A stretch of 64,000 bases of DNA, taken from contig JAXHVD010000014.1 of NCBI GenBank assembly GCA_034189385.1, forward strand, positions 60,050 to 124,049, read 5' to 3'. Below the pieces are notes generated by a model. It had not been told where the DNA came from. It saw nothing but the letters and a program-made list of their open reading frames with translations, and did not search any database. Shown in pieces: positions 14,980 through 52,389 of the stretch. Each line of letters begins with the position of its first letter. The stretch's first letter is position 1. The DNA comes from Thermodesulfobacteriota bacterium (GTDB lineage Bacteria > Desulfobacterota > Desulfobacteria > Desulfobacterales > C00003060). The position numbers and the translations under genes were made by a program.

Positions 14980-15079
14980 GACGGCCAGCCTGGGCCCTTT
15001 CTGCCCTTGTCTGTCAGGGCCATGACCGCTTTGTGGCCTGTGCATCTAAATGGGGAGCTTGTGTTGACCTGAGGGGAAG

Positions 15080-17391: not shown

Positions 17392-17488
17392 CTAAGTGCT
17401 CTCATTGAAAGTGGTGGTAAAGCCAGACATGGCCTTTTCAACGCAGGGGCTGAGAGCGCAATGCCCCTGTGCTTTTGCCCATCTTTAA

Positions 17489-17721: not shown

Positions 17722-17749
17722 AAGACTCGCGCTTTTCAAGGCAAGTAAC

Positions 17750-32981: not shown

Positions 32982-35900
32982 GTGACTCAAAAAGAGGACA
33001 TGGGGCAACGGCGGTCCAGGCTCTCACCGGCCAAGGGAGCGCTGCTTGAGAAACGGCTGCAACAGGCGCTGACGGCCGATTTTGAATCGAAAGTAATCCC
33101 TAAGCGTCCAGAGCCAGAAGACGTACCTCTGTCTTTCGCTCAGGAACGCTTTTGGTTCCTTCATCAGCTGGAGCCTGGCAACCCTGCTTACAACCGTCCT
33201 TTTGCCCTTCGTCTCACGGGCCCGCTCAACGTGACCGCCTTGGAGCAGACCCTTAGTGAAATCTTGCGCCGGCACGAGACACTGCGGGCAACTTTCTCCT
33301 CCATGGACGGACGACCGGTCCAGGCCATTTCCCCCGCCCGACCCGTGACTCTTGCGGTGACAGATCTGAGCAGGCAACCTGATCCGGAACGAGAAGCGCA
33401 GGCCAGGCAGTTGGCGGCTGTGGAAGCCCAGCGATCCTTTGATCTGGTCCAAGGGCCTTTGGTTCGGGCCACCTTGCTACGTCTAGACAACGAGGAGCAC
33501 CTGCTACTGCTGGTGATACACCATATTGCCTTTGATGGCTGGTCCGCCAAAGTGCTCATCCGTGAGCTCACGGCGATCTATGAAGCTTTTTCCAAGGGGA
33601 GCCCGTCGCCGCTGGCTGAACTGCCTATCCAGTGCGCAGATTTTGCACTCTGGCAGCGACAGTGGCTGCAGGGTGATGTCTTCAAGATACAGCTCTCCTA
33701 TTGGCAAGACCAACTGGCAGGTTCCCCACCCTCACTGGATCTCCCCGCGGATTACCCACGGCCGGCGACACAGACGCATCGGGGGAGACGTGAAGCCGTG
33801 ACGTTGCCTGTCTCTTTGTTGAGATCACTAAAAACCCTAAGCCAGCAGGAGGGCGTCACCCTGTTCATGGTATTGCTGGCAGCCTTCCAGGTCCTGCTGC
33901 ATCGGTATACGGGAAAGGATGACATCGTCGTGGGCTGTCCTATTTCAGGCCGCACCCACGTGGAGACAGAAAAAGTGATCGGGTTTTTGGTCAATACCTT
34001 GGTCCTTCGGACTGACCTGTCTGGCAACCCGACTTTTCGGGAACTATTGAGTCGGGTCCGTGAGGTGGCAATGGGCGCCTACGCCCACCAGGATCTGCCC
34101 TTCGAGAAACTCATAGAGGAGTTGAAATTGGACCGGGACCTCAGCAGAACACCGTTATTTCAGGTCATGTTCAACTTGGAGAATGTTCCTGGAGAGGTAG
34201 TGCTAACACAAGACCTGACCTTAGATGAATTCGAATTTGACAGTCGCGTCTCACAGTTCGATTTGACCTTGGAAGTAGTGGAGAAGACCGACGGGCTGTC
34301 CTGTTTGTGGGTGTACAACAGCGACTTATTTGATGAGACCACTGTTAAGCGAATGTCAGGACATTTTAGGACTTTGTTAGAAGGCATTGTGGCCAATCCA
34401 GGACAGCGCATCGGATTGTTGCCACTTCTAACGGAATCTGAACGACATCAGTTTCTGGTGGAGTGGAATGACAATCGAGTCCACTATCCCGAGGATCAGT
34501 GCGTCCATCAGCTTTTTGAGTCTCAGGCGAAACGAACGCCCGACGCCGTTGCGGCGGTCTTTAAGGACCAGCAGATGACTTACGACGAGCTGAACCGTCG
34601 GGCAAATTGCCTGGCACACTACCTGCGCAAGCTTGGGGTGGGGCCGGACATCTTGGTAGGAGTTTGTGTGGAGCGCTCCTTGGAGATGGTAGTGGGGCTG
34701 CTGGGCGTTCTCAAGGCCGGGGGTGCTTATGTCCCTCTGGATCCGGCCTATCCTGAAAAGCGCTTGGCCTTCATGGTGGAAGAGACAGAGGCGCCGGCGT
34801 TATTGAGCCAAAAGCACCTGGCAAAAAGGTTTAGCGATACCGGGGTAAAAGTCGTGTGTCTGGACAGAGATTGGGATGTAATCTCCCGAGAACCAGAAGA
34901 GAATCCTCTTTCTGAAACAGGGCCCCGCAATTTACTCTATCTGATTTACACTTCGGGTTCCACGGGAAAACCGAAAGGGGTGGAAATCGAACATAGGGGG
35001 GTAGTCAGTCTTATCTCGTGGCAGCAACGAACATTCTCTGTGTCTGAGGCAGACCGAGCGACCCAGCTTGGAGCACTTTCTTTTGATATGACCGTCATGG
35101 AGCTGTGGCCTTATCTGACTGCGGGAGCAACCGTGCATTTCCCGCCGGATAACGAAACGCGCACGTCGCCCTTGCAACTCCGTGATTGGTTGGTCTCAGA
35201 GGCAATTACCATCAGCGACCTGGTGACCCCATTGGCGGAATGGGTTCTGCCGCTGAGCTGGCCCAAAGGTTCCGCACTTCGGACCCTTGTGACTGGGGGC
35301 GACAAACTCAGTTCTTATCCTTCAGACGACTTGCCTTTTGAGTTTGTGAACACCTACGGCCCTGCAGAGTACACGGTACTCACGACATGGGCTACTATTG
35401 AACCAAATCAGCGAGCCCACTCAGCGCCACCTATCGGCCGACCCATCGATAATACGCAGGTGTACCTGCTCGACAAATACTTACAGCCTGTTCCCATCGG
35501 CGTACCTGGTGAGCTGTACGTTGGCGGTGTGGGCCTGGCCCGAGGCTATCTCAAGCGCCCGGAGCTGACGGCCGAGAAGTTCATACCCCATCCATTCAGC
35601 CATGCCCCCGGTGCGCGTCTTTACAAAACTGGCGACCTGGCCCGTTATTTGCCCGATGGGGCCATTGAGTTCCTCGGCAGGATGGACAGCCAGGTCAAGA
35701 TTCGTGGCTGCCGTGTGGAACTGGGAGAGATTGAGACAATACTAGGGCAACATCCAGCTGTGAACAAAGCCGTGGTCTTGGCCACAGAGAGGGGAAGCAA
35801 ACACGGCCGCCTTCCGATTTCACCGGCAACAGACAAGATCCTGGCAGCCTATGTGGTACTGCACAAGGGCCACTCTGTGTCCACTAGTGGACTGCGCCGG

Positions 35901-36398
35901 TTTCTGAAAGAGAGACTGCCGGAGTATATGGCCCCTTCAGCGTTTGTGGAACTGGAAGCCTTTCCCCTGACGCCTAACGGCAAGGTAGACCGAAGTTCCC
36001 TTCCCTGTCCAGACGCAACGCGACCTGACTTGGATGGGGCTTTCATCGCCCCCCGCACTGCCGTGGAGGAATTGGTGGCAGGGGTGTGGACAGAAGTGCT
36101 CAGGTTGGACCAGGTGGGGGTTCATGACAGCTTTTTTCAGTTGGGAGGCCACTCGTTGCTGGCCGTCCAGGTCATTTCTCGGCTCCGGAAGGCGTTTCAA
36201 ACAGATGTCCCTTTGCGTTGCCTCTTTGAGGCCCCCACTGTAGCAGAGCTCTCCCGGGCCATCTTGGCGAATGAACCCGTGCCCGGACAGGCTGAAAAGA
36301 TCGCCCGGATCATGAGTAAGGTAAAGCGTATGTCCCCGGACGAAGTCAAGAGGACTCTTGAGGAGAAGAAAGGGCAGCGAACCGGGGAGAGGCCATGA
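32982..36398 (+). CDS. Single-module NRPS 1 (C-A-PCP)
   Basis: [48 protein letters not shown]. Confidence 0.95.
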
Positions 36399-36468
36399 AC
36401 AGAACAAGACCCGGAGCAAGAATGCGCAAGGAGAAAACCCAATAGCCGTCAAGGAAACAGGAGAAGAC

Positions 36469-36693
36469 ATGCACAGGGACGACAGGGAGGACACCACCGT
36501 CTACAAGGTTGTCGTAAATCACGAAGAACAGTATTCCATATGGCCTGTAAACCGCGAAACCCCTCGCGGCTGGCATGAAGTGGGAAAAAGCGGGCCGAAG
36601 GCAGAATGTCTCGCATTCATCAAAGAAGTCTGGACTGACATGACACCCCTTAGCCTGAGGAAAAAGATGAAGCAGGAAGGGAAGTCCCAGTAA
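36469..36693 (+). CDS. mbtH: MbtH-like protein
   Basis: [42 protein letters not shown] before the ATG at 36469. Confidence 0.95.
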
Positions 36694-36729
36694 CCATCTT
36701 CAGATTTCTATTAAGGGAAACATCTTCCA

Positions 36730-39700
36730 ATGTCTGTGGAGAAAACCATACAAGAAAGGATTGATGAGTTTGTTGCCGAATCACGTGCGCTAAATGGGCA
36801 AGAGGTAAGAGAAAGGATGCCCTGGAACACCTCTGTAACGGCTGATGCCATCAGGCACTTTGCCTATGGTATCAGCGACGATAACCCCCTGTGGCTGGAC
36901 CGGCACTACGCATCCAAGACCTGCTATGGCCGCCTGGTCGCGCCGCCGGCTTTCCTCAGCTCCGTCCTGTACCCAATCCTACATGGGGCCCCAATGGATG
37001 TGCCTTTATCCAGCTTTATCGAGGGAATAGAATATCAATGGTTTTTGCCTGTTCTGGAAGGAGATTCGTTACGGGCATCGGCCAGGCAGATTGACGTCTT
37101 AGAATCGAAGGCCGCCAATGGCCGCCCCGTTGTCTATATTGTATCTGAGACCGGCTATTGGAACCAACAGGGTGAGCTGGTTGCAAAGGCAAGGGGAACA
37201 ATGGCCCGAGTTTTACGGGATGGGAAAGAACTCTCGGTTCAGCCTCCAATACATCAGTATAACCAGGAAGAGATACAAAGCATTGGCAAGGCCCTTGCAC
37301 GAGAGGGCAGGACCGGGGGCCGCAATCTGTTCGGTGAGGATGTTGAGGTCGGCCAGGAACTACCAGCGCTGGTGCGGGGCCCCCTAACCATCGGGGATAT
37401 GATCTGTTGGCAGGCTGCCGTTGGTCCCTCCTATCGGGCCGGATCTCTGGGTTATCGGGACATCGTGAAGGCACCCCACACGGCCGTTACAAATCCTATT
37501 ACCGGTTGGCCGGTTAGGTTTTCTCAACAGCATGAGGACTTTCAACTGGTGTCACAGCGCGGAATGTCCGCTCCCTTTGATAATGGTGTGATGCGTTTTT
37601 CCTGGTTGTCTCCTTTAGTAACAAACTGGATGGGTGATAATGGATTGCTGAAACGACTGGCTGTTCGGATAATAGCACCAAACCTATACGGGGATACTAC
37701 TTGGTATCAAGGAATAGTAACAAAGAAAAATGATACAAAGTCCGGTACTTCACTAACAGTCAAGATAACGGGAATCAACCAGGTGGGCATCACCACAACC
37801 CGAGGGGAGGCAGAAGTATTACTCCCATTGTGCAGGGCAAACAAGCGTGGCCATTCCCCACAAGAAATGAGCGAAAGGGATGATATCCTACAAGGCGATC
37901 CCGGGCAAAACTGCCTGCATGAGATGTTCGAGATTCAGGCCGAGCGGACACCCGATGCTGACGCAGTCTCCTTTGAAGACCAGCGGCTGAACTATCGCGA
38001 ATTGAACCAACTGAGTAACCGGCTGGCACACTATCTACGTTCTTCGGGTGTAGGTCCCGATGTGCCTGTGGGGATATATATGGAACGCTCCATCGATATC
38101 GTACTAGGAATACTGGCCACTCTGAAGGCAGGGGGGGCTTACGTGCCCTTAGATCCCGAATATCCAAAGGAACGATTGTCCTTTATGGCCGAAGATGCTG
38201 GGATTTCGGTACTTTTAACCCAAGAGCGGCTGCTCCATAGGCTACCCAACCAGGAGGCACGGGTAATCTGCTTAGACACAGGACGGAACACATACAGGCA
38301 TATGAGCGGAGAAACCCCCGTTACAAGTGTGAGGGACAATAATCTCGCCTATGTGATCTATACTTCCGGTTCTACTGGCCAACCAAGAGGCGTGGCCGTA
38401 TCCCATTCCAGTTTATCATTGTACATCAATTCCATCAGCAAGGCCTTAGGGGTAACTGATAAGGATGTATATTTACACACCGCATCTTTTTCTTTTTCCG
38501 CTGCCGTGCGACAGATGGTCTTACCCCTTTGTTTGGGTTCCACCCTGGTCGTTGCAAACTCCGAGGAAAGAAGAGATCCTCTCGCCCTATTTGAACTAGT
38601 CAAAAAGCGTAGTGTAACCGTATGGGATACTGTACCAAGCCTGTGGCGTCATTGCATTGATGCGCTGATGACTCTTGACCACGACGTCAGGGCAAACCTT
38701 CTCAGAAACAGGTTGCGCCTCATCCTGGTGACCGGTGAGCCACTAACCTGGGATATCCCTCGGACGTGGATGTCTCGATTGCATCATGGTGCGCACATCA
38801 TGAACCTGTATGGCCAAACAGAATCTACTGGGACTGTTAGTTATTATCCCATTCCCAAGGAGTTTGATGACAAATCGCGGGTAGTACCATTGGGAAGGCC
38901 AGTTGAAAGGACGCAGATCTACTTATTAGACGAAGACCTGCGCCAGGTTCCCAATGGGGTGGAAGGCGAAATCTGTGTCGGAGGCGGACGCTTGGCTAAA
39001 GGATACCTGCATGGAGACGGATTGATGACCGATCGATTCATCCCCGACCCGTTTAGTGGAAAGCCCGGTGCACGTCTTTATAAAACCCTCGACTTGGGGC
39101 GATATTTACCCGACGGCAATCTCGAGTTCATGGGTCGTCTGGATCAGCGAATCAAGATCCGCGGGTTCCGTATCGAACCGACGGAGATTGAAGAAACACT
39201 GAGAAAACACCCGGACGTACGCGACGCCGCCGTGTTAGCACGAGAGGACCTTCCAGGTGACAAAAGATTGATTGCCTACATAGTGCCTAATCAAGCCGGC
39301 ACGATAATGATTGAGGGTAACAGGCCATATAGGTTTTCAAATAACATGGCCGTGATGCAATTAAACAAACATGAGACCGACTACACCTATGGGGCAATAT
39401 TCGAGCGTCTCACCTATATGAGACATGGGATTACGATTCATGATGGTGATTGCATATTTGACGTGGGGGCAAACATAGGTCTCTTTTCGCTCTTTGTCCA
39501 TCAGTGGTGCAAAAAGCCAAGGATCTTCGCCTTTGAGCCCAATCCCGTCGTATTCGAGCTATTAAAGGCAAATGCGTCTTTGTATGGCCTGGACGTACGA
39601 TTGTTCCAATGTGGATTGTCTGATCAATCCAAGCGCGCACCCTTTACCTTTTTCCCTGGTTCTTCCATACAATCCGGCTTATATGCTGATGGGGAGAGCG

Positions 39701-40659
39701 AAAAGGCAGTGGTCAAAGCACTCATGACAAATCAGCAGAAAGCGGGAATCTCCGGTATGGACGAGACGATAGAACAGGCTGATGACATATTGAACAAGCG
39801 TTTTTCGCCTGAAACGTTTACTGTCCCCTTAAGAACCCTTTCGAGCGTGATAAAAGAGGAACATGTCCCGTGTATTCATCTTTTGAAGATTAATGTTGAA
39901 AAGAGTGAACTCGATGTTCTCGCGGGTATCGAGGATGATGACTGGAAGAAGATTGATCAGATGGTCCTAAAGGTGGACATTGAGGAACATCTGGACAGAG
40001 TTGTCTCGCTACTAAAAAATCAAGGTTATGATGTCACAGTAGATCAGGACAATCTTCTCGAGAATACCCCCATTCGCTCCGTATATGCCTTGCGACCATC
40101 AAAGAAACGAATTATCAAAAAGGAAGCCAAAGAGCAAACACAGACATCACAGTCACCTCCTTTGAGCATTCCAGTGATTTCAACCGGCGAACTGAAAACC
40201 TTTTTACGCAAGACGCTACCCGATTATATGATACCGTCTAGTTTCGTTTTACTGCAAGAGATACCGCGAGCACCAAGCGGCAAGGTTGATAGATCGGCAC
40301 TTCCCGCACCGGGAAAAGGGGGGCCAAAGCTGAAAGGGGCGTTTGAAGCACCTCTCAGCTCTGTGGAGAAGACCCTGGCCAACATCTGGGAGGAGGTGCT
40401 CCGTATAGAACGAGTAGGCCTGTACGATGATTTTTTTGAGTTAGGCGGCCATTCTCTTTCAGCCACTCAAGTCATCTCCAGATTGCGCGATACCTTTCAG
40501 ATAGAGTTATCTGTGGCCGATCTTTTTGAGGTCCCCACTGTGGCAAATCTGGCCGCAGAAATTACGCGGAAGTTGATTGAGAAGACGGGACATGAAGAAC
40601 TCCTGCCAAACACGATTCGGAGAAGATCTCCACAAAAAAACGGACTCACAAGTCGCTGA
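36730..40659 (+). CDS. NRPS-like protein: double hotdog (MaoC/FAS1-like) dehydratase, A domain interrupted by an FkbM-type methyltransferase, PCP
   Basis: DAIRHFAYGISDDNPLW..APPAF and second hotdog HED..DNG..RF..W; A core YTSGSTGQPRG; IFDVGANIGLF..FEPNP..LLKINVEKSE between A8 and A9; LGGHSL; no C domain. Confidence 0.88.
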   Translation: MSVEKTIQERIDEFVAESRALNGQEVRERMPWNTSVTADAIRHFAYGISDDNPLWLDRHYASKTCYGRLVAPPAFLSSVLYPILHGAPMDVPLSSFIEGIEYQWFLPVLEGDSLRASARQIDVLESKAANGRPVVYIVSETGYWNQQGELVAKARGTMARVLRDGKELSVQPPIHQYNQEEIQSIGKALAREGRTGGRNLFGEDVEVGQELPALVRGPLTIGDMICWQAAVGPSYRAGSLGYRDIVKAPHTAVTNPITGWPVRFSQQHEDFQLVSQRGMSAPFDNGVMRFSWLSPLVTNWMGDNGLLKRLAVRIIAPNLYGDTTWYQGIVTKKNDTKSGTSLTVKITGINQVGITTTRGEAEVLLPLCRANKRGHSPQEMSERDDILQGDPGQNCLHEMFEIQAERTPDADAVSFEDQRLNYRELNQLSNRLAHYLRSSGVGPDVPVGIYMERSIDIVLGILATLKAGGAYVPLDPEYPKERLSFMAEDAGISVLLTQERLLHRLPNQEARVICLDTGRNTYRHMSGETPVTSVRDNNLAYVIYTSGSTGQPRGVAVSHSSLSLYINSISKALGVTDKDVYLHTASFSFSAAVRQMVLPLCLGSTLVVANSEERRDPLALFELVKKRSVTVWDTVPSLWRHCIDALMTLDHDVRANLLRNRLRLILVTGEPLTWDIPRTWMSRLHHGAHIMNLYGQTESTGTVSYYPIPKEFDDKSRVVPLGRPVERTQIYLLDEDLRQVPNGVEGEICVGGGRLAKGYLHGDGLMTDRFIPDPFSGKPGARLYKTLDLGRYLPDGNLEFMGRLDQRIKIRGFRIEPTEIEETLRKHPDVRDAAVLAREDLPGDKRLIAYIVPNQAGTIMIEGNRPYRFSNNMAVMQLNKHETDYTYGAIFERLTYMRHGITIHDGDCIFDVGANIGLFSLFVHQWCKKPRIFAFEPNPVVFELLKANASLYGLDVRLFQCGLSDQSKRAPFTFFPGSSIQSGLYADGESEKAVVKALMTNQQKAGISGMDETIEQADDILNKRFSPETFTVPLRTLSSVIKEEHVPCIHLLKINVEKSELDVLAGIEDDDWKKIDQMVLKVDIEEHLDRVVSLLKNQGYDVTVDQDNLLENTPIRSVYALRPSKKRIIKKEAKEQTQTSQSPPLSIPVISTGELKTFLRKTLPDYMIPSSFVLLQEIPRAPSGKVDRSALPAPGKGGPKLKGAFEAPLSSVEKTLANIWEEVLRIERVGLYDDFFELGGHSLSATQVISRLRDTFQIELSVADLFEVPTVANLAAEITRKLIEKTGHEELLPNTIRRRSPQKNGLTSR

Positions 40660-40693
40660 CGGACAGGGTATGAATGATTTTGGAGCTTATTGA

Positions 40694-41593
40694 ATGGGTA
40701 AGAGTATGGACATTCGTGTGGTCGCCGTTGTTGGCGCTGGTGTAATAGGACGGGGCGTGTCCCAAAACCTTGCCCAGACCGGCCATCAGGTGATGCTCCT
40801 CGATGTTGTGCCGGAAATACTCGAAGAGGCTAGAAGGGACATCAAAGAAAACATGAGATTGCAGCAGTTCTTCACCCAAGCCGACAAGGGGGAAAACCCG
40901 GATGAGGTGTTGGGACGCATAAGGTTTTCTGCCGATCATCACCTTCTGTCGGATGTGGATTTCGTGATCGAGAACGTCACCGAGAAGTGGGAGATCAAAA
41001 AAGAGATATACGGGCATCTTGAGGCCCGGTGCCCCGAGGAATGCGTCTTTGCAGCGAACACCTCCGCCATACCCATTACCCGCATCGCCTCGGCCACAAA
41101 GAGACCGGCGAAAGTCATCGGAATGCATTTCATGAATCCCGTCCCTTTGAAGCCAACAGTTGAAGTGATTCGCGGGGTTCACACATCCGATGAGACCCTT
41201 GAAACGGCAAAGGTCCTGCTCGCCCAGATGGGCAAAGGCTGCATTGTGGTCAATGATTCGCCCGGCTTTGTTTCCAACCGTGTACTCATGTTGGCAATCA
41301 ACGAAGCTGTGTACGCATTGCAGGAGAAAGTAGCCTCTGCTGAGGACGTAGACAGAATATTCAAAACCTGTTTTGGTCACAAAATGGGCCCCCTGGAAAC
41401 AGCCGATCTGATCGGACTCGATACGGTCCTCTATACCCTGGAGGTCCTTCATGAAAGCTTTAAGGACAGCAAATACAGGGCCTGTCCATTACTCAAGAAG
41501 ATGGTGGATGGGGGTTTCCATGGCAGGAAAAGCGGGCAAGGATTCTACGATTATTCTGTCCATAACACAGACCCTGCGAGCGAAGAAGAGTGA
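40694..41593 (+). CDS. 3-hydroxyacyl-CoA dehydrogenase-like, FkbK/ZmaG-type acyl-ACP dehydrogenase
   Basis: GAGVIG Rossmann motif, ANTSAIPIT, GMHFMNP, PGFVSNR; adjacent to ACP, ACAD and FkbH genes. Confidence 0.88.
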   Translation: MGKSMDIRVVAVVGAGVIGRGVSQNLAQTGHQVMLLDVVPEILEEARRDIKENMRLQQFFTQADKGENPDEVLGRIRFSADHHLLSDVDFVIENVTEKWEIKKEIYGHLEARCPEECVFAANTSAIPITRIASATKRPAKVIGMHFMNPVPLKPTVEVIRGVHTSDETLETAKVLLAQMGKGCIVVNDSPGFVSNRVLMLAINEAVYALQEKVASAEDVDRIFKTCFGHKMGPLETADLIGLDTVLYTLEVLHESFKDSKYRACPLLKKMVDGGFHGRKSGQGFYDYSVHNTDPASEEE

Positions 41594-41600
41594 TATCGCT

Positions 41601-41864
41601 ATGAAGGAGAACAGAGAGAAAATCAGGGCGTTTTTGGCCAGATACATTTCAACCCACGATTTACGAGATGATGATGACATCTTTGCAAGCGGTTTTGTCA
41701 ATTCACTGTTTGCCATGCAATTGGTCTTGTTTGTAGAAGGGGAGTTTCATCTCCGAATCGAAAACGAGGATCTGAAGATTAAGAACTTCAGATCGATCAA
41801 TGCTCTTAGCCGTTTGATAGAACGGAAAGTGTTGCAGTTAAACAGTGCGCACTTCCCGGGTTGA
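41601..41864 (+). CDS. Stand-alone ACP of the FkbJ/ZmaD type
   Basis: DIFASGFVNSLFAMQLVLFVE..F motif typical of hydroxy/methoxy/aminomalonyl-ACP carriers. Confidence 0.88.
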   Translation: MKENREKIRAFLARYISTHDLRDDDDIFASGFVNSLFAMQLVLFVEGEFHLRIENEDLKIKNFRSINALSRLIERKVLQLNSAHFPG

Positions 41865-41903
41865 TTTCCACTCGATTGCCCGTCTTGCTGGATAGAAAGT
41901 GTC

Positions 41904-43046
41904 ATGAAAATGGAGCTGAATGCAGAGCAGAAGAAAGATCAGGCGGCCTTCCGGGCTGTTGTGAGTAAAGAGATTGTTCCCCATGCCGATGAATACGATC
42001 GGCAGGAGCGCGTCCCCTTTGATCTCATCAAAAGACTGGGCCGCGAGGGATATCTGGGCGCGACTTTGCCCACGGAATACGGCGGCCGTGCCATGGACAT
42101 GATCACCTATGGCCTTCTCAACGAAGAGCTTGGACGAGGCTGCTCTTCGGTGCGCGCCTTGGTCATGCTCCAAAATATGATCGGCCAGACAATCCTTAGA
42201 TGGGGGAACAGGGATCAAAAGGGGTTCTGGCTCAACAAGCTGGCATCAGGTGAGGCGCTGGCTTCCTTCGCCCTGACCGAACCGGATGTAGGTAGCGACG
42301 CCAGCAATGTCCAGACTGCGGCGAGACCGGCGGGGGACAACTATATCATCAATGGACGGAAGAAGTGGATCACCCTGGGACAGATAGCAGACCTTTTTCT
42401 GGTGCTTGCTCAATGGGAAGGACAGCCCTGTGCCTTTCTGGTGGAGAAAGACACTCCGGGTTTGTCGATAAACCCCCTTTTCGGGATGCTCGGCGCTAGA
42501 GCCTCCTTGCTTGCTGAATTGCATTTTGATGATTGCCCGGTCCCAGCAGAGAATCTGGTCGGTGCCATGGGCTTTGGCCTGGCGCCTGTAGCCTTCTTGG
42601 CCCTCAATATCGGAAGATACAGCGTTGCCTGGGGCTGTGTGGGTATTGCGCAGGCCTGTCTCGAGGCCTGTATAGACCATACGAGCAAGAGAAAACAGTT
42701 CGGGGTCTATCTCAAGGAACACCAATTGATCAAGCACATGATCGCTGACATGGTCGTGAAAGTGAAAGCAGGAAGGCTGCTGTGCATTCGGGCCGGCTCC
42801 TCTATGGAGGCGGGTGATCCGAGCTCTGTCACGGAGACAATGGTGGCCAAGTATTTTGCCTCACAAATGGCCAGTGAGATAGCAAATGATGCGGTGCAAA
42901 TCCACGGCGCCCTGGGGTGTAGTCGTGAACATGGGGTGGAGAGATACTTGCGCGATGCCAAAGTGATGGAAATTATCGAAGGAACGACGCAGATACTTCA
43001 GATGAAAATCGCCGAATACGCCTATCAGGAGCACGGCGACAAGTGA
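41904..43046 (+). CDS. Acyl-CoA dehydrogenase-like, FkbI/ZmaE-type
   Basis: GRGCSSVR, ALTEPDVGSDA, GRYSVAWGCVGIAQAC, RDAKVMEIIEGT. Confidence 0.88.
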   Translation: MKMELNAEQKKDQAAFRAVVSKEIVPHADEYDRQERVPFDLIKRLGREGYLGATLPTEYGGRAMDMITYGLLNEELGRGCSSVRALVMLQNMIGQTILRWGNRDQKGFWLNKLASGEALASFALTEPDVGSDASNVQTAARPAGDNYIINGRKKWITLGQIADLFLVLAQWEGQPCAFLVEKDTPGLSINPLFGMLGARASLLAELHFDDCPVPAENLVGAMGFGLAPVAFLALNIGRYSVAWGCVGIAQACLEACIDHTSKRKQFGVYLKEHQLIKHMIADMVVKVKAGRLLCIRAGSSMEAGDPSSVTETMVAKYFASQMASEIANDAVQIHGALGCSREHGVERYLRDAKVMEIIEGTTQILQMKIAEYAYQEHGDK

Positions 43047-43053
43047 TGTTTGC

Positions 43054-44166
43054 GTGAAATGTATCGCCCCCTTGGCAATGACCTCAATGACCATCTCGAC
43101 AAACAGGAAATTGGCTGACAAGGATCATAGAAAGCAATCCGTCAAGTGCGTCGTCTGGGATCTCGATGACACGATATGGAAGGGCGTATTGCTGGAGAAT
43201 GACCACCTTTGCCTGCGGGAAAACGTGATCTCCATCATCAAGGCTCTGGATAACCGCGGTATCCTGCAATCCATTGCCAGCAAGAACGATGGTGCTGCCG
43301 CGATGAAAAAGCTCAGCGAGTACGGTCTGAACGAGTATTTTCTCCATCCCCAGATTGGCTGGAACTCCAAAGCCTCATCCATTCAGCACATTGCTCGGTC
43401 ACTCAACATTGGTACGGATGCAATGGCCTTCATTGATGACCAGCCTTTTGAAAGAGAAGAAGTGAGGTTTTCGCTACCTGAAGTTCTCTGTGTGGATGCA
43501 AAAGACTTGCATAGACTGCTCGATATGCCGGAAATGAACCCTGGCCTTGTTACCGAAGATTCGAAAATGAGAAGGTCGATGTACCTTAGCGACGTGTCAC
43601 GGCTAAGATCTGAACAGGAGTTTGAGGGTTCCAAAGAGGCTTTTCTAGCGTCACTCCGCATGGTCCTCACTATCTTTGCGGCAAGAGAAGAGGATTTGCT
43701 GCGAGCAGAAGAATTGACGGTGCGCACCAATCAACTGAATGCAACAGGCTTCACCTATTCCTATGAGGAGCTGGATCACTTCCGGCAATCGAAAGGGCAC
43801 ATCCTGCTCATGGCAAAGCTGGAAGATAAGTACGGTAGTTATGGAAACATCGGCTTGGCACTCGTCCAATGTGAGGCAAGGGTATGGACCATAAAACTCC
43901 TGTTGGTATCGTGCCGGGTCATGTCCAGAGGAATCGGCTCCATTATCCTTAGCCACATCATGATGATGGCCAGAAACCATAACGTGCGTTTGCGCGCTGA
44001 ATACGTGGAGAATGGTCGAAACCGCATGATGAATATCACCTATCGCTTTGCAGGGTTTTATGAAATTGAGCGGAAGGGCAAGGTCACTCTTTTTGAAAAT
44101 GACCTGACGGCAATTCAACCCTTTCCCGATTATGTAGGAGTGGAAATCCATGACCAATCCGTCTGA
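43054..44166 (+). CDS. FkbH-like glyceryl-ACP phosphatase/transferase (HAD-IIIC)
   Basis: VWDLDDTIW, QSIASKN, FIDDQPFER, RTNQLN, SCRVMSRG. Confidence 0.92.
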   Translation: MKCIAPLAMTSMTISTNRKLADKDHRKQSVKCVVWDLDDTIWKGVLLENDHLCLRENVISIIKALDNRGILQSIASKNDGAAAMKKLSEYGLNEYFLHPQIGWNSKASSIQHIARSLNIGTDAMAFIDDQPFEREEVRFSLPEVLCVDAKDLHRLLDMPEMNPGLVTEDSKMRRSMYLSDVSRLRSEQEFEGSKEAFLASLRMVLTIFAAREEDLLRAEELTVRTNQLNATGFTYSYEELDHFRQSKGHILLMAKLEDKYGSYGNIGLALVQCEARVWTIKLLLVSCRVMSRGIGSIILSHIMMMARNHNVRLRAEYVENGRNRMMNITYRFAGFYEIERKGKVTLFENDLTAIQPFPDYVGVEIHDQSV

Positions 44167-47100
44167 AGGGGTCTCCGACCCATCCTTAAAGAGCGAGGCA
44201 CTGCTTGAGGCGTTGCTCAAGGCCGCCGCCACCGGACGGAGCCGGAAAATCACCCGAAGAAATGTTGCAGGCCCTGCTCCCCTCTCCTTTGCCCAACAAA
44301 GGCTTTGGTTTCTCGATCAAGTGGTTCCCGGCAACCCGGCGTATAACGTGGTGAGGGCCTTTCGCCTCACAGGGCAAATCGACCCGAAAGTTCTGGAAAG
44401 GGTCCTCAGTGAAATCCTGCGGCGCCACGAATCCCTTCGCACGACCTTCACTGCGGTGGAAGGCCGCCCTGTGCAAATGGCTCAGCCGGTGCCCGGCCCC
44501 GGGCACTCCCAACGGCAACCCATGCCTTTATTCTCACGGGTGATCGATTTGAGCCGCTTGCCAGAGCCCGAACGGGGCGACAAGATCCATGACCTTCTGA
44601 CCAAGGAAAGCCGAAGAACTTTCGACCTGACCCAAGGGCCCCTCATGGGGATGACCCTCTTGCGATTGGGCGAGGAAGAACATGTACTCCTCCTTGTGAT
44701 GCACCATATTGTCTCGGACGGCTGGTCTGTCGGCGTTCTCCTCAGAGAATTGGCTGCCCTTTATGAGGCCTTTTCCACAGGTGCGTCCTCACCCCTTCCT
44801 CCGTTGCCCATACAGTATGCAGATTTTGCCCTCTGGCAACGACAGTGGCTGCAGGGAGAGGTCCTGGAAGATCAATTGGCTTACTGGAAGAAGCAACTGG
44901 CAGGGGCTCCCTTCAGGCTGGAACTCCCCGCAGACCGCCCAAGGCCGTCTGTTCAGACATACGGAGGGGCACGGCAGTCTGCCTTTCTATCCAAAGAGTT
45001 GACCGAGGGTCTCAGAGAATTGGGCCAGCGGGAAGGCGTCACCCTGTTTATGACGCTTCTCGCTGCTTTCAAGACGCTTCTCTACCGTTACTCTGGACAG
45101 GAAGACATCACCGTGGGCTCTCCCATTGCAAACCGGAACCGGGTGGAGATCGAATCCTTGATTGGCTTCTTTGTGAATACCCTCGCCCTGCGCACGGACC
45201 TTACAGGGAATCCGAGTTTTCAAGGATTGGTGCATCGCGTGCGAAAAGTAGCCCTGGAAGCCTACGCTCACCAGGATCTCCCCTTTGAGAAGCTGGTAGA
45301 AGAATTGCAGCCGGAAAGAAATCTCAGTCATTCGCCCCTCTTTCAAGTGATGTTTGTACTGCACAATCAGCCCATGCCCACCCTGGAGTTCTCCAATATG
45401 AGGCTCAACCCTATGGAAGTGGATAATGGGACGGCGAAGTTTGATCTGACCCTCTTCGTATTACAACGGAAAGAGGGGCTCCAGTGCACATGGGAGTACA
45501 ATACCCATCTATTCGATCATGCAACCGTTGGCCGGATGCTTGGACATTTTCACACCCTGTTGGAAGGGATTGTGGCCGATCCGGGGCAGCCTATCGGACT
45601 GTTGCCCCTCTTGACAGAGGCGGAAGGGCATCAGTTGCTGGTGGAGTGGAACGATACGCGAGCAGAGTATCCCCAGGATCAATTGGTCCACCACCTCTTT
45701 GAGGCCCAGGCGGAACGAAGGCCTGACGCGGTGGCCATGGTCTTCAGGGAAGAGCAGATGACGTACGGTGAGCTCAATTGCCGGGCGAACCGTCTGGCCC
45801 ACTATCTGCGCAAACTGGGGGTTGGTCCAAAGGTCCTGGTAGGAGTTTGTCTGGAGCGCTCCTTGGAAATGGTGGTGGGATTGCTGGCCGTCCTCAAGGC
45901 AGGGGGGGCGTATGTGCCGCTGGATCCGTCTTACCCCGAAAAGCGCTTGGCCTTCATGCTGGAAGAGACAGAAGCGCCGGTGTTGCTGAGCAAAGCATAC
46001 CTGACGGGAAAGTTTCCCCGTAACGGGGCGAAAGTCGTATGCCTGGACAGAGATTGGGATGTGATTGCCCGGGAACCGGGAGAAGTCCTTTTTGTCGACA
46101 CAGGGCCTTCCAATCTGGCCTATGTGATTTTCACTTCCGGTTCCACCGGCAAGCCGAAAGGGGTCGAAGTCGAACACAGGGGCTTGGTCAATCTTGTCTC
46201 GTGGCTTCAATGGACATTTTCTGTATCGGAAAAGGATCAAACCGCCCATCTGGCCTCTTTGTCCTTCGATGTGTCCGTCATGGAGCTTTGGTCTTACCTG
46301 ACTGCCGGGGCAAGGATTTCTTTGCCGCCGGATGAAGAAAGGCGCACATCACCTTTGGGGCTTCGCGATTGGCTCCTTTCGGAAGAAATCAGCGTCAGTG
46401 TTCTGGTGACCCCGTTGGCAGAGTTGGTTTTACCGCTGAGTTGGCCAGAAACCGCCCCTCTTCGGGTTCTTATGACCGCCGGAGACAAGCTCAGTTCTTA
46501 TCCTTCAAAGACCTTGCCCTTTCAGTTTGTAAATGCCTACGGGCCCACCGAGTATACTGTCCTCACCACGTGGGCCGCCGTGGGGCCGAATCAGGGAAGC
46601 TACTCCCCCCCACCCATCGGCCGGCCCATAGCCAATACCCAGGTTTATCTTCTGGACAAATACCTGCAACCCGTTCCCGTGGGCGTGCCCGGTGAGCTTT
46701 ACGTGGGCGGTGTGGGCCTGGCCCGAGGGTATCTCAAGCGTCCCGAACTAACGGCAGAGAAGTTCATCCCTAACCCCTTCGGCAATGATCCCGGCAGTCG
46801 TCTCTATCGGACCGGAGACCTGGCCCGGTATCTGCCCGATGGGAACATCGAGTTCCTGGGGAGAATGGACAGCCAGGTTAAGATCCGCGGCTTTCGTGTG
46901 GAGCCGGGGGAGATTGAGACCATCCTGGGGCAACACCCGGCAGTGAAAAAGGTCGTGGTGTTGGCAAGACAAAGGGCGCCCAACAGAACCACTCCGGCTG
47001 CAGACAAGCATCTTGTGGCTTATGTGGTACCCCACCGGGACAACTCCCTGGCCATTGATGAACTGCGCCGGTTTCTCAAAGAGAGGCTTCCCGACTACAT

Positions 47101-47551
47101 GGTGCCTTCAGCCTTTGTCCTGCTCCATTCCCTCCCCTTGACGCCTAACGGCAAGGTGGACCGTAGCGCCCTGCCGCTGCCAGAGCCGACCCGGCCTGAC
47201 TTGAATGAGGCCTTCATAGCGCCCCGCACTGCCGTGGAGGAATTGGTGGCAGGGGTGTGGAGCGAAGTGCTCAGGTTGGATCGGGTGGGCGTGCAGGACA
47301 ACTTTTTTGAATTGGGCGGACACTCTTTGCTGGCGGTCCAGGTCCTTTCCAGGCTCCGGAGGGTTTTTCAGGCGGATCTCCCTTTGCGCTGCCTGTTCGA
47401 AGCGCCGACCGTGGCGGAGCTATCGCACGTCATCATGGCCAACGAGCCAATGCCGGGACAGACCGAAAAGATCGCCCGGGCCATGGGCAAGATAAAGAAG
47501 ATGTCCTCTGAGGACATGAGCAAAACGCTTGAGGAAATAAGACGCCAGTGA
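44150..47551 (+). CDS. Single-module NRPS 2 (C-A-PCP), paralog of NRPS 1
   Basis: [42 protein letters not shown]. Confidence 0.95.
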   Translation: MTNPSEGVSDPSLKSEALLEALLKAAATGRSRKITRRNVAGPAPLSFAQQRLWFLDQVVPGNPAYNVVRAFRLTGQIDPKVLERVLSEILRRHESLRTTFTAVEGRPVQMAQPVPGPGHSQRQPMPLFSRVIDLSRLPEPERGDKIHDLLTKESRRTFDLTQGPLMGMTLLRLGEEEHVLLLVMHHIVSDGWSVGVLLRELAALYEAFSTGASSPLPPLPIQYADFALWQRQWLQGEVLEDQLAYWKKQLAGAPFRLELPADRPRPSVQTYGGARQSAFLSKELTEGLRELGQREGVTLFMTLLAAFKTLLYRYSGQEDITVGSPIANRNRVEIESLIGFFVNTLALRTDLTGNPSFQGLVHRVRKVALEAYAHQDLPFEKLVEELQPERNLSHSPLFQVMFVLHNQPMPTLEFSNMRLNPMEVDNGTAKFDLTLFVLQRKEGLQCTWEYNTHLFDHATVGRMLGHFHTLLEGIVADPGQPIGLLPLLTEAEGHQLLVEWNDTRAEYPQDQLVHHLFEAQAERRPDAVAMVFREEQMTYGELNCRANRLAHYLRKLGVGPKVLVGVCLERSLEMVVGLLAVLKAGGAYVPLDPSYPEKRLAFMLEETEAPVLLSKAYLTGKFPRNGAKVVCLDRDWDVIAREPGEVLFVDTGPSNLAYVIFTSGSTGKPKGVEVEHRGLVNLVSWLQWTFSVSEKDQTAHLASLSFDVSVMELWSYLTAGARISLPPDEERRTSPLGLRDWLLSEEISVSVLVTPLAELVLPLSWPETAPLRVLMTAGDKLSSYPSKTLPFQFVNAYGPTEYTVLTTWAAVGPNQGSYSPPPIGRPIANTQVYLLDKYLQPVPVGVPGELYVGGVGLARGYLKRPELTAEKFIPNPFGNDPGSRLYRTGDLARYLPDGNIEFLGRMDSQVKIRGFRVEPGEIETILGQHPAVKKVVVLARQRAPNRTTPAADKHLVAYVVPHRDNSLAIDELRRFLKERLPDYMVPSAFVLLHSLPLTPNGKVDRSALPLPEPTRPDLNEAFIAPRTAVEELVAGVWSEVLRLDRVGVQDNFFELGGHSLLAVQVLSRLRRVFQADLPLRCLFEAPTVAELSHVIMANEPMPGQTEKIARAMGKIKKMSSEDMSKTLEEIRRQ

Positions 47552-47561
47552 GGTATGGGGA

Positions 47562-50500
47562 ATGGACAAATGCCATGAGGGCGCCGACCCCTCTTCAGAG
47601 GAACTAGAGCTTCTCAGATACCTGTTGGAAGAAGAGGGCATTAAACCCCAACGGACGGCGACCATCCCGCGAAGGGGCAGTGTTGAAGAGGTGCCAATGT
47701 CCTTTGCCCAGCAGCGCCTGTGGCTCTTAGACCAGTTAGAGCCTGAGAGCGCGGCCTACAACATTGCGGCAGCTTTTAGCCTCACCGGTTTACTCCATGT
47801 GGCCGCACTGGAGCATGCCCTCAATGCATTGATTAGGCGCCACGAGTCCTTGCGAACGACCTTCACTGAGGTGGCGGGAAAACCGCAGCAGATCATTTCA
47901 CCCACTCTTTCCCTTGAGCTTCCAGTGATAGAACTTCGAGAACTGTCAGAGGCAGAGCGAAATAGGGCGGTCCGGCGGTTGTCGGCTGAGGAGGCCCGGC
48001 GGCTCTTCGACCTGAGCCAAGGGCCACTCCTAAGAGCCACCTTGCTGCGGATGACTGAACAGGAATACGTGCTGCTCTTAACATTGCATCATATTGTTGC
48101 TGACGAGTGGTCCATGGAGGTGCTCTTTCGTGAACTCGCAGTGCTCTACAAAGCCTTGTCTGTGGACAGACCATCTCCCCTTAATGCGTTGCCTATTCAA
48201 TACGCCGACTTTGCCGTGTGGCAGCGACAGTGGCTCCAGGGTGAGGAACTAGATGCCCAGCTTTCCTACTGGAAAGACAGGCTCGCTGATGCTCTCCCTT
48301 CGCTGAATTTGCCAACGGACCGCCCTCGACCAGCCATGCAGACGTTTCGCGGCAGTCGTGAGTCTCGGCCTTTGCTCTCCGCGGCTCAGCTGCAGGCGCT
48401 AAAGGCGTTGAGCGTTGAGGAAGATGCGACTCTGTTTATGACATTGCTTGCAGCCTTCAACGTCCTGTTGCATCGGTACACCGGTCAAGAGGACATTGCT
48501 GTAGGCTCTCCCATTGCAAACCGGAACCGGATTGAACTTGAAGGGCTCATCGGTTTTTTCCTCAATACCCTGGTCCTTCGCACGGACCTCTCCGACGATC
48601 CCACCTTTCGCGAACTCCTGGCCCGGGTGCGCGAGACGGCCTTGGAGGCCTATGCCCATCAGGACGTGCCCTTCGAGAGACTGGTGGAGAAACTGCAGCC
48701 GGAACGGGACCTGAGCCGCACACCCTTGTTTCAGGTCATGTTTGTCCTCCGGGACGGCCGCAGACAGACCCTGGAGCTTTCGGGCGTAACAGTCACTCCC
48801 ATGGAGGTGGATACGGGTACTTCAAAGTTTGATCTCATACTCTTTGTGGCAGAGGGAGAAGACGGGCTCCGAGGGACGGTAGAATACAACACCGACCTCT
48901 TCCACAAAACGACCATCGCCCGAATGTTGGGACACTACGAGCGCCTGTTAGAGGCCATCGTTTCCGACCCGGACCAACGGGTGGGGGCCTTGCCCCTTCT
49001 CACAGCACCTGAGCGGCATCAGCTGCTGGTGGAGTGGAATAATACCCGAACAGAATATCCTGGGAAGCAATGGGTCCACCAGCTCTTTGAGTCCCAGGTG
49101 GAACGGACGCCCGACGCGGTTGCCGTCGTCTTTGGGGACCAGCAGATAACTTACGATGAGCTGAACCGTCGGGCGAATCGACTGGCCTGGTATCTGCGCA
49201 GGCTCGGGGTGGGACCCGATGTCTTGGTGGGGATCTGCCTAGAGCGTTCCTTAGACATGGTGGCGGCATTGCTGGCCGTCCTCAAGGCAGGGGGGGGCTA
49301 TGTGCCGCTGGATCCGTCTTACCCCAGGGAGCGCTTGGCGTTCATGTTGGAGGATGCCCCCATGACGGCCCTGTTCACTCAGACGGGACTCCTTGAAACC
49401 CTGCCGAAGCACGGAGCAAAGACGGTCTGTCTCGACTCCGGCTTGGAAGACCTGACCCGTGAAGGAGAAACAAATCCGGTGAACGAAGGTTCCACGGAGA
49501 GTCTGGCCTATGTCCTGTATACGTCGGGGTCTACCGGACTACCCAAAGGGGTGGCCATGACCCACCGCTCCCTCTCCAACTTGATTTGCTGGCAGGTCCA
49601 AAACTCTGCCCTTCCCGAAGGAGCCAGGACCCTGCAATTTGCCCCTTTAAGCTTTGATGTCTCCTTTCAGGAGATCTTTTCCACCCTCTGTTCCGGAGGG
49701 GCCCTGGTTCTCATCTCAGAGGAGTCCAGGCGGGATCCCATGGAGCTGTTGGGTTGTGTCACGGCCAAATCCATTGAAAGGCTCTTTCTCCCCTTTGTGG
49801 CCCTGCAGCAGTTGGTAGAAGGAGCTGACGGCCGCGGGACCGTCCCCGCCGGCCTTCGTGAAATCATCACTGCCGGCGAACCCTTGCAGATCACGAGGCA
49901 GGTGGCCTCTTTTTTCAGCCGCCTAACAGGCTGTGCCCTCTATAACCAGTACGGGCCGACAGAGAGTCATGTTGTCACCGCTTTTGCCCTGAAAGGCCCA
50001 CCCGGTGACTGGCCCCTCTTTCCGCCCATGGGTCGGCCCATTGCCAACACCCAGATCTATCTCCTGGACAAAGATCTGCAGCCTGTTCCCCCGGGCGTGC
50101 CCGGTGAGCTTTATATAGCCGGTGTGGGCCTGGCCCGCGGGTATCTTCACCGCCCCGAACTGACGGCCACCGCCTTCATCCCCAACCCCTTCGGCAATGA
50201 CCCCGGCAGTCGTCTTTACAATACCGGAGACCTGGCCCGGTATCTGCCAGACGGAAACATGGAGTTCCTGGGAAGAATAGACAGCCAGGTCAAGATCCGC
50301 GGCTTCCGTGTGGAGCTGGGGGAAATCGAGGCAGCCCTCAGAGAGCACCCGGACCTCCGAGACGCCGTTGTAGTGGCAAGACAGGACGGGTCCGCAGACA
50401 GGTATCTTGCAGCGTACGTTGTCCCGGTTGAGATCCTTGCGCCTACCATCAGTGGATTGCGGAGCTTCTTGCAGGAGAGATTGCCTGACTACATGATCCC

Positions 50501-51623: not shown

Positions 51624-52389
51624 GCACCTTTCGCGCACTAAAGACTCCTTGTCTTCATGGTCTCCTCCGCCAGCAAGTCCTACGTTAGCCAAAGACGAGG
51701 TTCACCTGTGGCGGGCGTATTTGGACGTAGCTGTGCAACTGCTAGAAAGCCTGAAGCATTGCTTGTCTCGGGACGAACTGACAAGAGCGGAGCGTTTTCA
51801 TTTTGAGAAAGACCGAAATCGTTTCATTGCAGCCCGTGGGGTCCTTAGGAAGATTCTGTCTGCCTATTGCATGACGGAACCGAATCAACTTTCTTTTCAT
51901 CACAACATGCATGGGAAGCCTGCTTTAGACCCGCAATGTGACGGGGGTGGTCTTCGCTTCAATTTATCTCATTCTGATGGGGTCGCTCTCTACGCCATTA
52001 CACGTGGCCGTGAGGTCGGTATCGATATCGAACGCATTCGCACGGATTTGGAGTTTGATCGGATCGCAGAACGTTTTTTTTCGCCCCAAGAGGTTGCCAC
52101 ACTGCTCGCACTCCCACCGCATACTCAGAAACAAGCATTCTTCGCCTGCTGGACCCGGAAAGAGGCTTACGTAAAAGCAAGAGGCGACGGGCTTTCTCTG
52201 CCTCTGGATCAATTTGCCGTATCGGTGGCGCCTGATGACGCAGCGGTGCTGCTGCACACAAAGGGTGATCCTCAGAATCTGTCCCATTGGTCTTTGAAAG
52301 CCTTGGCCCTAGGCCCTGATTATGAGGCGGCGCTTGCCGTGGAGGGAGATTCCGGGCTACTTAGATGCTGGCAATGGGCGGAGGAATAG
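51616..52389 (+). CDS. Sfp-type 4'-phosphopantetheinyl transferase
   Basis: GKP, FNLSHS, VGIDIE, FFACWTRKEAYVKA.G. Confidence 0.95.
   Translation: MIEHLSRTKDSLSSWSPPPASPTLAKDEVHLWRAYLDVAVQLLESLKHCLSRDELTRAERFHFEKDRNRFIAARGVLRKILSAYCMTEPNQLSFHHNMHGKPALDPQCDGGGLRFNLSHSDGVALYAITRGREVGIDIERIRTDLEFDRIAERFFSPQEVATLLALPPHTQKQAFFACWTRKEAYVKARGDGLSLPLDQFAVSVAPDDAAVLLHTKGDPQNLSHWSLKALALGPDYEAALAVEGDSGLLRCWQWAEE

Follow-up and report, generated by a model that had tools for sequence, protein, structure and literature searches.

Hydroxymalonyl-ACP and methoxymalonyl-ACP are extender units that polyketide synthases (PKSs) use in decarboxylative condensation, and genome mining reads the gene cassette that makes them as a PKS marker. 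In a stretch of 64,000 nt (the window) from a marine bacterium, the assembly of which comprises 4.13 Mb in 64 contigs and is 90.4% complete, such a cassette stands among nonribosomal peptide synthetase (NRPS) genes, and the question arises what consumes its product. The answer tentatively preferred here, possible rather than probable, is that the cassette serves the non-decarboxylative capping of a peptide with a hydroxy- or methoxymalonyl unit in a PKS-free NRPS.

Four genes on the forward strand make up the cassette. They encode a FkbK/ZmaG-type NAD-dependent glyceryl-ACP dehydrogenase (40694..41593; 3HCDH_N and 3HCDH domains), a stand-alone ACP of the FkbJ/ZmaD type with 87 amino acids (41601..41864; PP-binding match over the cut-off), a FkbI/ZmaE-type FAD-dependent acyl-ACP dehydrogenase (41904..43046; four acyl-CoA dehydrogenase Pfam domains) and a FkbH/ZmaN-type glyceryl-ACP synthase (HAD-IIIC; 43087..44166; TIGR01686, 258.9 bits against a cut-off of 146.65). 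As the preliminary description had stated, all four are intact. They have no internal stops, and the catalytic motifs are in place, namely GxGxxG and HFMNP in FkbK, GFVNSLFAMQ with the NSL serine motif typical of cassette ACPs, EIIEGT in the catalytic region of FkbI, and WDLDDT (DxD motif) and SCRV (C-terminal Cys) in FkbH. The latter probably starts at the ATG at 43087 (359 amino acids, the same size as P0121) and not at the GTG at 43054. Identities to the zwittermicin cluster of Bacillus thuringiensis IS5056 are 51% for FkbK (RS30435), 41% for the ACP (RS30455), 47% for FkbI (RS30450) and 52% for FkbH (RS30400), and the cassette match is thus not due to chance. FkbI is 42% identical to the ACAD encoded beside zmaJ, against the 47% to RS30450. 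Both dehydrogenases resemble cassette orthologues more than they do the housekeeping paralogues of the same genome, FkbK sharing mostly 60-71% identity with the former against 49% with the beta-oxidation paralogue, and FkbI mostly 48-59% against at most 37%. The stand-alone ACP was the only match in the genome to a cassette-ACP profile, and a search with FkbK among 50% representatives yielded nothing further.

The cassette is embedded in a self-contained operon of 21 kb, in which all genes are co-directional (forward strand) and tightly packed, and the contig ends 11 kb from it. The first gene, N0 (31104..32969), encodes an oxalate-CoA-ligase-like A domain and a carrier (T) (Pfam AMP-binding and PP-binding), for which an oxalyl starter is predicted, its best PDB matches being oxalate-CoA ligases (5ie0, E 3e-128; 6qjz; 8aff). 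It is followed by N1 (32982..36398; C-A-T, with C motif HHIAFDG, A code DMMDVGTVL and an N-terminal docking motif), an MbtH-like protein (36469..36693; PF03621, E 1e-22) and N2 (36730..40659), which directly precedes FkbK. Downstream of the cassette lie N3 (44150..47551; C-A-T, C motif HHIVSDG, A code DVMVMAAVL), which is 67% identical to N1 and was termed NRPS 2 in the preliminary description, N4 (47562..51623; C-A-T-TE, with the presumably proline-like A code DVQFIAQVV and a TE motif, GACLGG, with Cys instead of Ser) and a Sfp-type phosphopantetheinyl transferase (PPTase; 51601..52389). The gaps measure 34 nt between N2 and FkbK, 7 nt between FkbK and ACP, 39 nt between ACP and FkbI and 40 nt between FkbI and FkbH, while the 3' end of FkbH overlaps the start of N3 by 17 nt. 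This overlap, formerly put forward as an argument for coupling, is uninformative, as FkbH also overlaps the downstream NRPS gene in the zwittermicin cluster, by 19 nt. Given that PKS-K-ACP-I-H-NRPS is the usual order, the adjacency of FkbH and NRPS is inherited gene order, frequent in PKS hybrids, and was rejected as evidence of coupling.

The reported absence of modular ketosynthase (KS) and acyltransferase (AT) domains from the 64-kb window was borne out. A genome-wide check for a modular PKS, set beforehand as the refutation test, found none in the 4.13-Mb, 90%-complete assembly and left the proposal standing, with no modular KS or AT fragment in the 64 contigs, small ones included. The only genes of KS/AT type in the assembly encode two stand-alone FabF-like KSs, three KS III enzymes and one FabD, and a profile built from 55 modular KSs matched, among 18,003 ORFs, only the two FabF-like ORFs and one thiolase. 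The absence of a modular KS or AT from the assembly and the position of the cassette within a self-contained operon favour capping.

Zwittermicin A provides one of the closest known systems, in which hydroxymalonyl-ACP is made by ZmaN/D/G/E and consumed by ZmaA-AT, methoxymalonyl-ACP being the product of FkbGHIJK, according to the portions available of the two sources (PMC4207774, PMC6395733). The four genes are orthologous to those described here, but neither the cluster nor the assembly analysed encodes a cognate AT or modular KS. A further difference from FkbGHIJK is that, in the stead of FkbG, an FkbM-family methyltransferase (TIGR01444, 93.5 bits) is embedded in the NRPS A domain of N2 (double-hotdog (FAS1_DH/MaoC)-A-methyltransferase-T), directly upstream of FkbK. 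The preliminary description had noted that there is no stand-alone FkbG, which holds insofar as none is linked to the cassette; a Methyltransf_3 gene lies in the same genome on an unlinked contig, C34. The missing FkbG does not, however, fix the product as hydroxymalonyl, since the methyltransferase in N2 makes methoxymalonyl possible. Fusion of the O-methyltransferase into another protein is also seen, as far as the source was available (PMC6395733), in CndE of chondrochloren and PelG of pellasoren, and Streptomyces plasmids L274 and L276 carry AT-ACP-FkbM before FkbK; there an FkbM-family methyltransferase about 40-46% identical to that of N2 adjoins the cassette, but those loci carry PKS modules and the present cluster none.

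N2 itself does not appear to be a dedicated partner of the cassette. In its A domain (code SARDLTLGT) Ser replaces Asp235 and an Arg is found at position 239, from which a non-amino-acid substrate is predicted. As homologues with the same methyltransferase occur in two cassette-free genomes (G722 and G724), the methyltransferase probably acts on a substrate in cis as well. At the family level N2 was rejected as a conserved cassette partner, with FkbH or the cassette accompanying the N2 family in 0/25 loci (stand-alone double-hotdog loci being set aside) and 0/26 genomes; the excision of A domains by motif missed 42 of the 120 N2-family proteins.

The transfer of a 1,3-bisphosphoglycerate-derived acyl unit from a carrier to a C domain, sometimes after O-methylation, has been described for vioprolide, cystomanamide, corramycin, suomilide/aeruginosin AerB and foxicin in the sections available of the respective papers (PMC8949500, PMC10099666, PMC13122637, PMC10143770, PMC5318452). 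That a glyceryl-ACP could act as donor to a C domain, as proposed earlier, had already been published for vioprolide, cystomanamide, corramycin and suomilide, and the reported acceptance of carrier-bound glycerate by C domains favours capping. In assembly lines of the vioprolide/suomilide type FkbH is a domain of the megasynthetase (FkbH-T) and the unit stays glycerate, as far as these sources were available, whereas in the present cluster FkbH and the ACP are separate proteins, not fused, and FkbK and FkbI are both present, so that the unit would be an oxidised dicarboxylate. A literature search covering few subscription journals and no supplements returned no report of a C domain using hydroxy- or methoxymalonyl-ACP.

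On the capping reading, the PPTase, the gene for which is present, would prime the ACP, onto which FkbH would load glycerate from 1,3-bisphosphoglycerate. By homology to the zwittermicin enzymes, FkbK and FkbI would then oxidise C3 to the carboxylate, giving hydroxymalonyl-ACP, which the FkbM-type domain of N2 may O-methylate. A C domain would condense the tartronyl or methoxymalonyl unit, intact, with the amino group of an amino acid held on a T domain; the acceptor would be N3 by gene order, or N1, where the unit could stand in for the oxalyl starter, which it resembles chemically. The two other non-amino-acid loaders, N0 with its likeness to oxalate ligases and N2 with its Ser and Arg substitutions, look acid-activating, which points to short acid-capped peptides, perhaps metal chelators, as the products. 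A more inclusive scheme, in which one PKS-free line uses C2, C3 and probably C4 dicarboxylate caps (an oxalyl starter, the hydroxy-/methoxymalonyl cap and a hydratase-coupled acid starter), is rather doubtful.

The C domains themselves argue against capping. Those of N1, N3 and N4 form one group with two others (SH-aLRT 96) among LCL-like domains, their best PDB matches are Txo1/Txo2, 5u89 and TycC, and no starter-type C domain stands out among them in the PDB matches or in a quick tree of 72 C domains, which included no named starter C domain and placed PKS-accepting C domains within the same broad group. Six carriers compete for three C domains. Read by eye, N1 and N3 have a C-terminus type in common, and N3 and N4 an N-terminus type. 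The docking motifs suggest a linear N0>N1>N3>N4 line that would use all three C domains and leave none spare, and N1 (from 32982), rather than the cassette ACP, as the donor for the C domain of N3 (from 44150); a predicted complex between the C-terminal end of N1 and the N-terminal end of N3 scored 0.06, which carries no weight in either direction.

Such linear use of all three C domains would also suit an explanation in which the cassette is a relic, the PKS module before FkbK of an ancestral hybrid PKS-NRPS having been replaced by the block of oxalyl loader, N1 and N2, and the cassette having been carried along with the downstream NRPS with no consumer. Among the closest loci the order PKS-K-ACP-I-H-NRPS dominates, and N2 stands just before FkbK, where many related clusters have a PKS module. 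The GC3 of N2 (0.52; ACP 0.53) is below that of its neighbours N1, FkbK, FkbI, FkbH and N3 (0.58-0.66), and its family is independent of FkbH. Furthermore, the docking motifs at the end of N0 and the start of N1 are those by which PKS modules connect to post-cassette C domains, the N-terminal motif of N1 being found in 19/20 of the latter. A relic is nevertheless unlikely, considering that all four genes have kept their catalytic motifs and that dN/dS, at 0.15-0.21 for each of them (against L108), is about 0.2. The present arrangement also recurs. A single unitig covers the stretch from N2 to N3 in run X1, which may be a source run. Run X4, taken from another study, bridges the N2/FkbK junction, and an 88%-identical contig of run X2, likewise from another study, spans the FkbH/N3 junction, without a PKS (runs X5 and X6 were set aside for their small shares). 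Homologues of N2 (78%) and FkbH (81%) occur in one NCBI MAG entry and appear to lie on one 19,725-nt contig, for which the list of homologues of N1, N3 and N4, dominated by two-module proteins, is uninformative, and an N3-like start follows FkbH in the clade-mates L109 and L116 as well. These observations favour capping, although purifying selection at L108 and at the 19.7-kb contig may reflect a PKS there.

A second alternative, in which the cassette is an ordinary supplier of extender units to a type I PKS in the unassembled part of the genome, draws on the cassettes of relatives. The phylum was searched with FkbI (four candidates scored per genome) and again with FkbH, with the same single match. 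Type I KS ORFs occur in 18/18 other same-phylum genomes with the cassette-type FkbH, in nine of them on other contigs and in G812 on the same contig at a distance of about 40 kb, and also in 8/36 genus relatives. Among 24 long metagenome loci, KS or AT is present in 17, neither PKS nor NRPS in six (L169 and L172 being near-duplicates) and NRPS only in one, the last two classes holding within 5-10 kb, a distance to be compared with that in G812. All 24 carry a complete cassette with flanks of 5 kb or more on either side, and were selected from 80, of which 35 had no full cassette and 21 of the other 45 had flanks below 5 kb. The PKS-less cassette of nocathiacin has, in the part of the source available, been read as part of a flanking cluster (PMC6395733). 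Together with the 90% completeness of the assembly, these counts and the cassette-free N2 family weigh against capping. A missing PKS is still quite unlikely, as no modular KS or AT, not so much as a fragment, turned up in the 64 contigs and the cassette lies in the middle of an NRPS operon that has a TE and a PPTase of its own.

PKSs in homologous clusters had been named beforehand as counter-evidence; most related cassettes do adjoin a PKS, yet two same-phylum genomes (G375 and G902) have GNAT-like neighbours instead. In both, homologous GNAT_C/NAT_N-like genes (30% identity between the two) come after the full cassette, and neither PKS nor NRPS lies within about 17 kb, which makes PKS-independent use plausible, in favour of capping, and suggests non-KS acyl transfer; the neighbours of the present cassette are NRPS modules, with no such GNAT linked. 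That another transferase (the Cys-type TE, a stand-alone KS III or FabF, or a GNAT) moves the unit to a peptide side chain, a lipid or a surface polysaccharide accords with these two genomes, with the six metagenome loci that have neither PKS nor NRPS, with the Cys of the N4 TE and with an atypical KS III, a second FabF and a weak FemAB-like GNAT in this genome (contigs C2, C62 and C8), but is decidedly unlikely, since the G375/G902 transferase has no homologue in this genome and all candidates except the TE are unlinked to the cassette.

Should capping be correct, a C domain would take an intact half-thioester to give tartronyl- or methoxymalonyl-capped peptides, and with them a new way of making alpha-hydroxy-acid metal ligands as well as a capping module that is portable. 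Should the cassette instead be a relic or supply a missing PKS, it would count as an ordinary module of a rearranged cluster, in which the oxalyl and double-hotdog starters would be the more unusual feature; on MaoC-A-T starters the same literature search, with its few subscription journals and no supplements, returned no report. At 21 kb the cluster can be cloned whole, which makes the question directly testable. Its downstream limit is less clear, as a beta-keto acid cleavage enzyme (BKACE/KCE; 52526..53359, forward strand) follows after a gap of 136 nt with lower GC, and its membership is uncertain; it was rejected as a conserved partner, with no match beside any related cassette locus or N2-family locus. 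At the edges of the cluster, scans for promoters and repeats gave chance-level results only.

The NRPS cluster (31104–52389, all genes on the forward strand) comprises, in order, N0, N1, MbtH, N2, the FkbK-ACP-FkbI-FkbH cassette, N3, N4 and an Sfp PPTase. N0 (31104–32969) is an oxalate-CoA-ligase-like A-T protein, while N1 and N3 are C-A-T proteins sharing 67 % identity (A codes DMMDVGTVL and DVMVMAAVL, respectively). N2 (36730–40659) combines a double-hotdog (FAS1_DH/MaoC) domain with an A domain (SARDLTLGT), an FkbM-type methyltransferase (MT) and a T domain, and N4 (C-A-T-TE) has an A code, DVQFIAQVV, which we take to be proline-like. The thioesterase (TE) motif of N4, GACLGG (51100–51130; residues 1182–1187), has a Cys nucleophile, as do 5/21 TE motifs matched among the proteins retrieved; the Cys-type TEs of the obafluorin and sulfazecin synthetases are ring-forming. 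A beta-keto acid cleavage enzyme (52526–53359), which by the chemistry of its family would convert oxaloacetate and acetyl-CoA to oxalyl-CoA, is encoded 136 nt after the PPTase and might, speculatively, supply oxalate for N0; it is not conserved at the related loci compared. Polysaccharide export/Wzc-like genes (14182–19873) and a TPR-sulfotransferase (57526–59562) flank the region.

The cassette genes, FkbK (40694–41593), ACP (41601–41864), FkbI (41904–43046) and FkbH (43087–44166), are indeed complete, as the preliminary description held, with the catalytic motifs and the ACP motif kept, and with gaps of 34, 7, 39 and 40 nt from N2 through FkbH. They share 51, 41, 47 and 52 % identity, respectively, with the zwittermicin cluster counterparts on Bacillus thuringiensis plasmid pIS56-233, and FkbI is closer to the gene in the ZmaE position (47 %) than to that beside zmaJ (42 %); the Zma names, except zmaJ, are assumed from position. 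From this homology, hydroxymalonyl-ACP is the predicted product.

In the host assembly (4.13 Mb in 64 contigs; completeness 90.4 %, contamination 4.2 %), the genes of these kinds were two stand-alone FabF-like KS, three KS III and one FabD, together with a thiolase. Profiles derived from 55 modular KS and 48 AT sequences added nothing to these among its 18,003 ORFs, so that no cognate PKS which would refute the preliminary proposal turned up in this assembly. C domains are limited to the three of this cluster. The absence of modular KS and AT from an assembly with such a cassette is unusual: type I KS ORFs occur in all eighteen other genomes with a cassette-type FkbH (49–64 % identity), found among overlapping samples from the class (300 genomes), the order (400) and the phylum (400), these eighteen including non-independent kin (six of one genus). 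The KS adjoins FkbH in eight, shares its contig at a distance of ~40 kb in one and lies elsewhere in nine. A second, unrelated FkbH in the host (633 aa, 30 % identity; contig C1, 258718–260867) has its own ACP within a glycosyltransferase locus.

A scan of 36/64 metagenome parts gave, among the best 80 of 543 matches, 45 loci with all four genes. Twenty-four have flanks of 5 kb or more on either side, with KS or AT in seventeen, NRPS only in one and neither PKS nor NRPS in six (including two near-duplicates). The three complete-plasmid cassettes examined besides zwittermicin all have KS. Asparagine-synthase-like amidotransferase genes adjoin the cassettes of L217 (genome G759), L174 and L015, and could amidate the free carboxylate to give a hydroxymalonamoyl starter. 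In genus g22 (L020, L022, L024, L026, L016) FkbH stands by itself or is separated from K-ACP-I, and the large PKS/NRPS clusters which these genomes also carry lie far from it.

The arrangement is thus real and uncommon, and the mechanism is a proposal. Our best, though tentative, reading is that the NRPS would take hydroxy- or methoxymalonyl from the ACP as a non-decarboxylated acyl cap, its carboxylate kept, every step of use being inferred. C domains accepting carrier-bound glycerate are described in the reports on vioprolide, cystomanamide, corramycin, suomilide/aeruginosins and foxicin (PMC8949500, PMC10099666, PMC13122637, PMC10143770, PMC5318452), so that the glyceryl donor of the preliminary description is already published for other systems. 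The nocathiacin cassette, in a PKS-less cluster, was read as part of a flanking cluster in PMC6395733. No report of an oxidised unit passed to a C domain was found in the open-access literature searched. Quinocarcin biosynthesis uses glycolyl-ACP.

That the cassette was left behind when a PKS module was replaced is a serious but unlikely alternative. N2 occupies the slot just before FkbK usually held by a PKS module, and the commonest order among related loci, PKS module-K-ACP-I-H-C-A-T, already ends in FkbH-C-A-T; the FkbH-then-NRPS order is therefore inherited. The overlap between FkbH and N3 is real (17 nt), but as a sign of coupling it fails, since FkbH overlaps an NRPS gene by 19 nt in the zwittermicin cluster, where the unit goes to ZmaA-AT according to PMC4207774. 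Set against decay are dN/dS values of 0.15, 0.20, 0.21 and 0.19 for the four genes relative to locus L108 (67–91 % amino acid identity; simple codon counting), values which may be owed to a PKS beside the L108 cassette. One unitig of run X1, possibly the source run, covers 36061–47251 without differences, and contigs from other studies span the N2/FkbK (X4) and FkbH/N3 (X2, 88 % identical) junctions. Homologues of N2 (P0002, 78 %) and FkbH (P0122, 81 %) share a source type and longest contig (19,725 nt), and by inference lie on one contig. FkbH falls in a thirteen-member clade (FastTree support 98; members with short flanks), of which L109 and L116 have an N3-like start after FkbH.

A PKS in the unassembled part of the genome is improbable: the 90.4 % completeness leaves room for one, and nine of the eighteen genomes carry their KS away from FkbH, set against the negative profile search. 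Least probable is uptake by another transferase, as suggested by two same-phylum genomes, G375 (L191: 216–4585) and G902 (L225: 160–4497), where the full cassette precedes a Pfam-less 306–308 aa gene with a GNAT_C/NAT_N-like fold, G375 also having a FemAB-like GNAT upstream, with no PKS or NRPS within ~17 kb and with KS ORFs that look PUFA-synthase-like.

The three C domains of the NRPS are candidates for taking up the unit. HHxxxD is intact in all of them, and they cluster with one another within the LCL-like domains of a tree which holds no characterised starter reference; none of them is set apart there as a starter type. The N0 C-terminus has an acidic helix as on PKS modules upstream of cassettes, N1 begins with LSPAKxALLEKRL, found on 19/20 post-cassette C domains, the N3 and N4 starts are alike and lack this motif, and the N1 and N3 C-termini are alike. 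By eye, these termini would fit a linear N0>N1>N3>N4 line using every C domain, which is the main argument against the N3 C domain as acceptor, as previously proposed. The ACP and N2 would then be left as alternative starters, or act via the Cys-type TE; two lines could share N4, or starters could compete at N1.

The A domain of N2 lacks the amine-binding Asp, and SARD is common to 76/78 aligned family members; its substrate is thus probably a carboxylic acid. The family (loci L030–L062 among others) includes at least 130 proteins from many phyla, whose SARD pocket hardly varies, and stand-alone homologues (59–68 % identical) occur in catabolic loci with succinate/malate-CoA-ligase-like, cyclodeaminase-like and enolase-superfamily genes. 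No report of double-hotdog-A-T starters was found in the open-access literature. As no cassette lies near N2-family genes (0/25 loci) and no cassette-type FkbH occurs in genomes with an N2-family protein (0/26), the family is independent of the cassette. An N0-like gene accompanies the N2-family gene in 6/25 loci (L046, L047, L050, L051, L061, L062), which suggests a shared acid-starter logic for oxalate-CoA-ligase-like A-T and double-hotdog-A-T proteins. N0 and N2, the two loaders besides the proposed capping cassette that are not predicted to take amino acids, likewise resemble acid activators.

No FkbG is linked to the cassette, as first described, but N2 contains an FkbM-type MT. FkbM-family MTs 40–46 % identical to it adjoin cassettes at L128, L136, L143, L151, L166, L274 and L276, and a fused O-MT takes the place of FkbG in chondrochloren, according to PMC6395733; methoxymalonyl is thus a possible cassette product. 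Counting against it, the MT occurs in 9/120 N2-family proteins, two of them in cassette-free genomes.

The cluster was probably acquired, since the lpxC-adjacent genes of relatives map to a different host contig. Among the 36 other genomes of the host genus (37 in all), the double-hotdog domain occurs in none and C domains in three. The closest named proteins are from a Thermodesulfobacteriota MAG, and metagenomes of marine and sediment origin contain cluster DNA. In G330, a genome of the same genus, a polysaccharide locus (L236, contig C29) holds a small NRPS of another make-up (PPTase, MbtH-A-T-C-A, C-A-T), and here too the first A domain has no Asp235 (FSSSIRQ).
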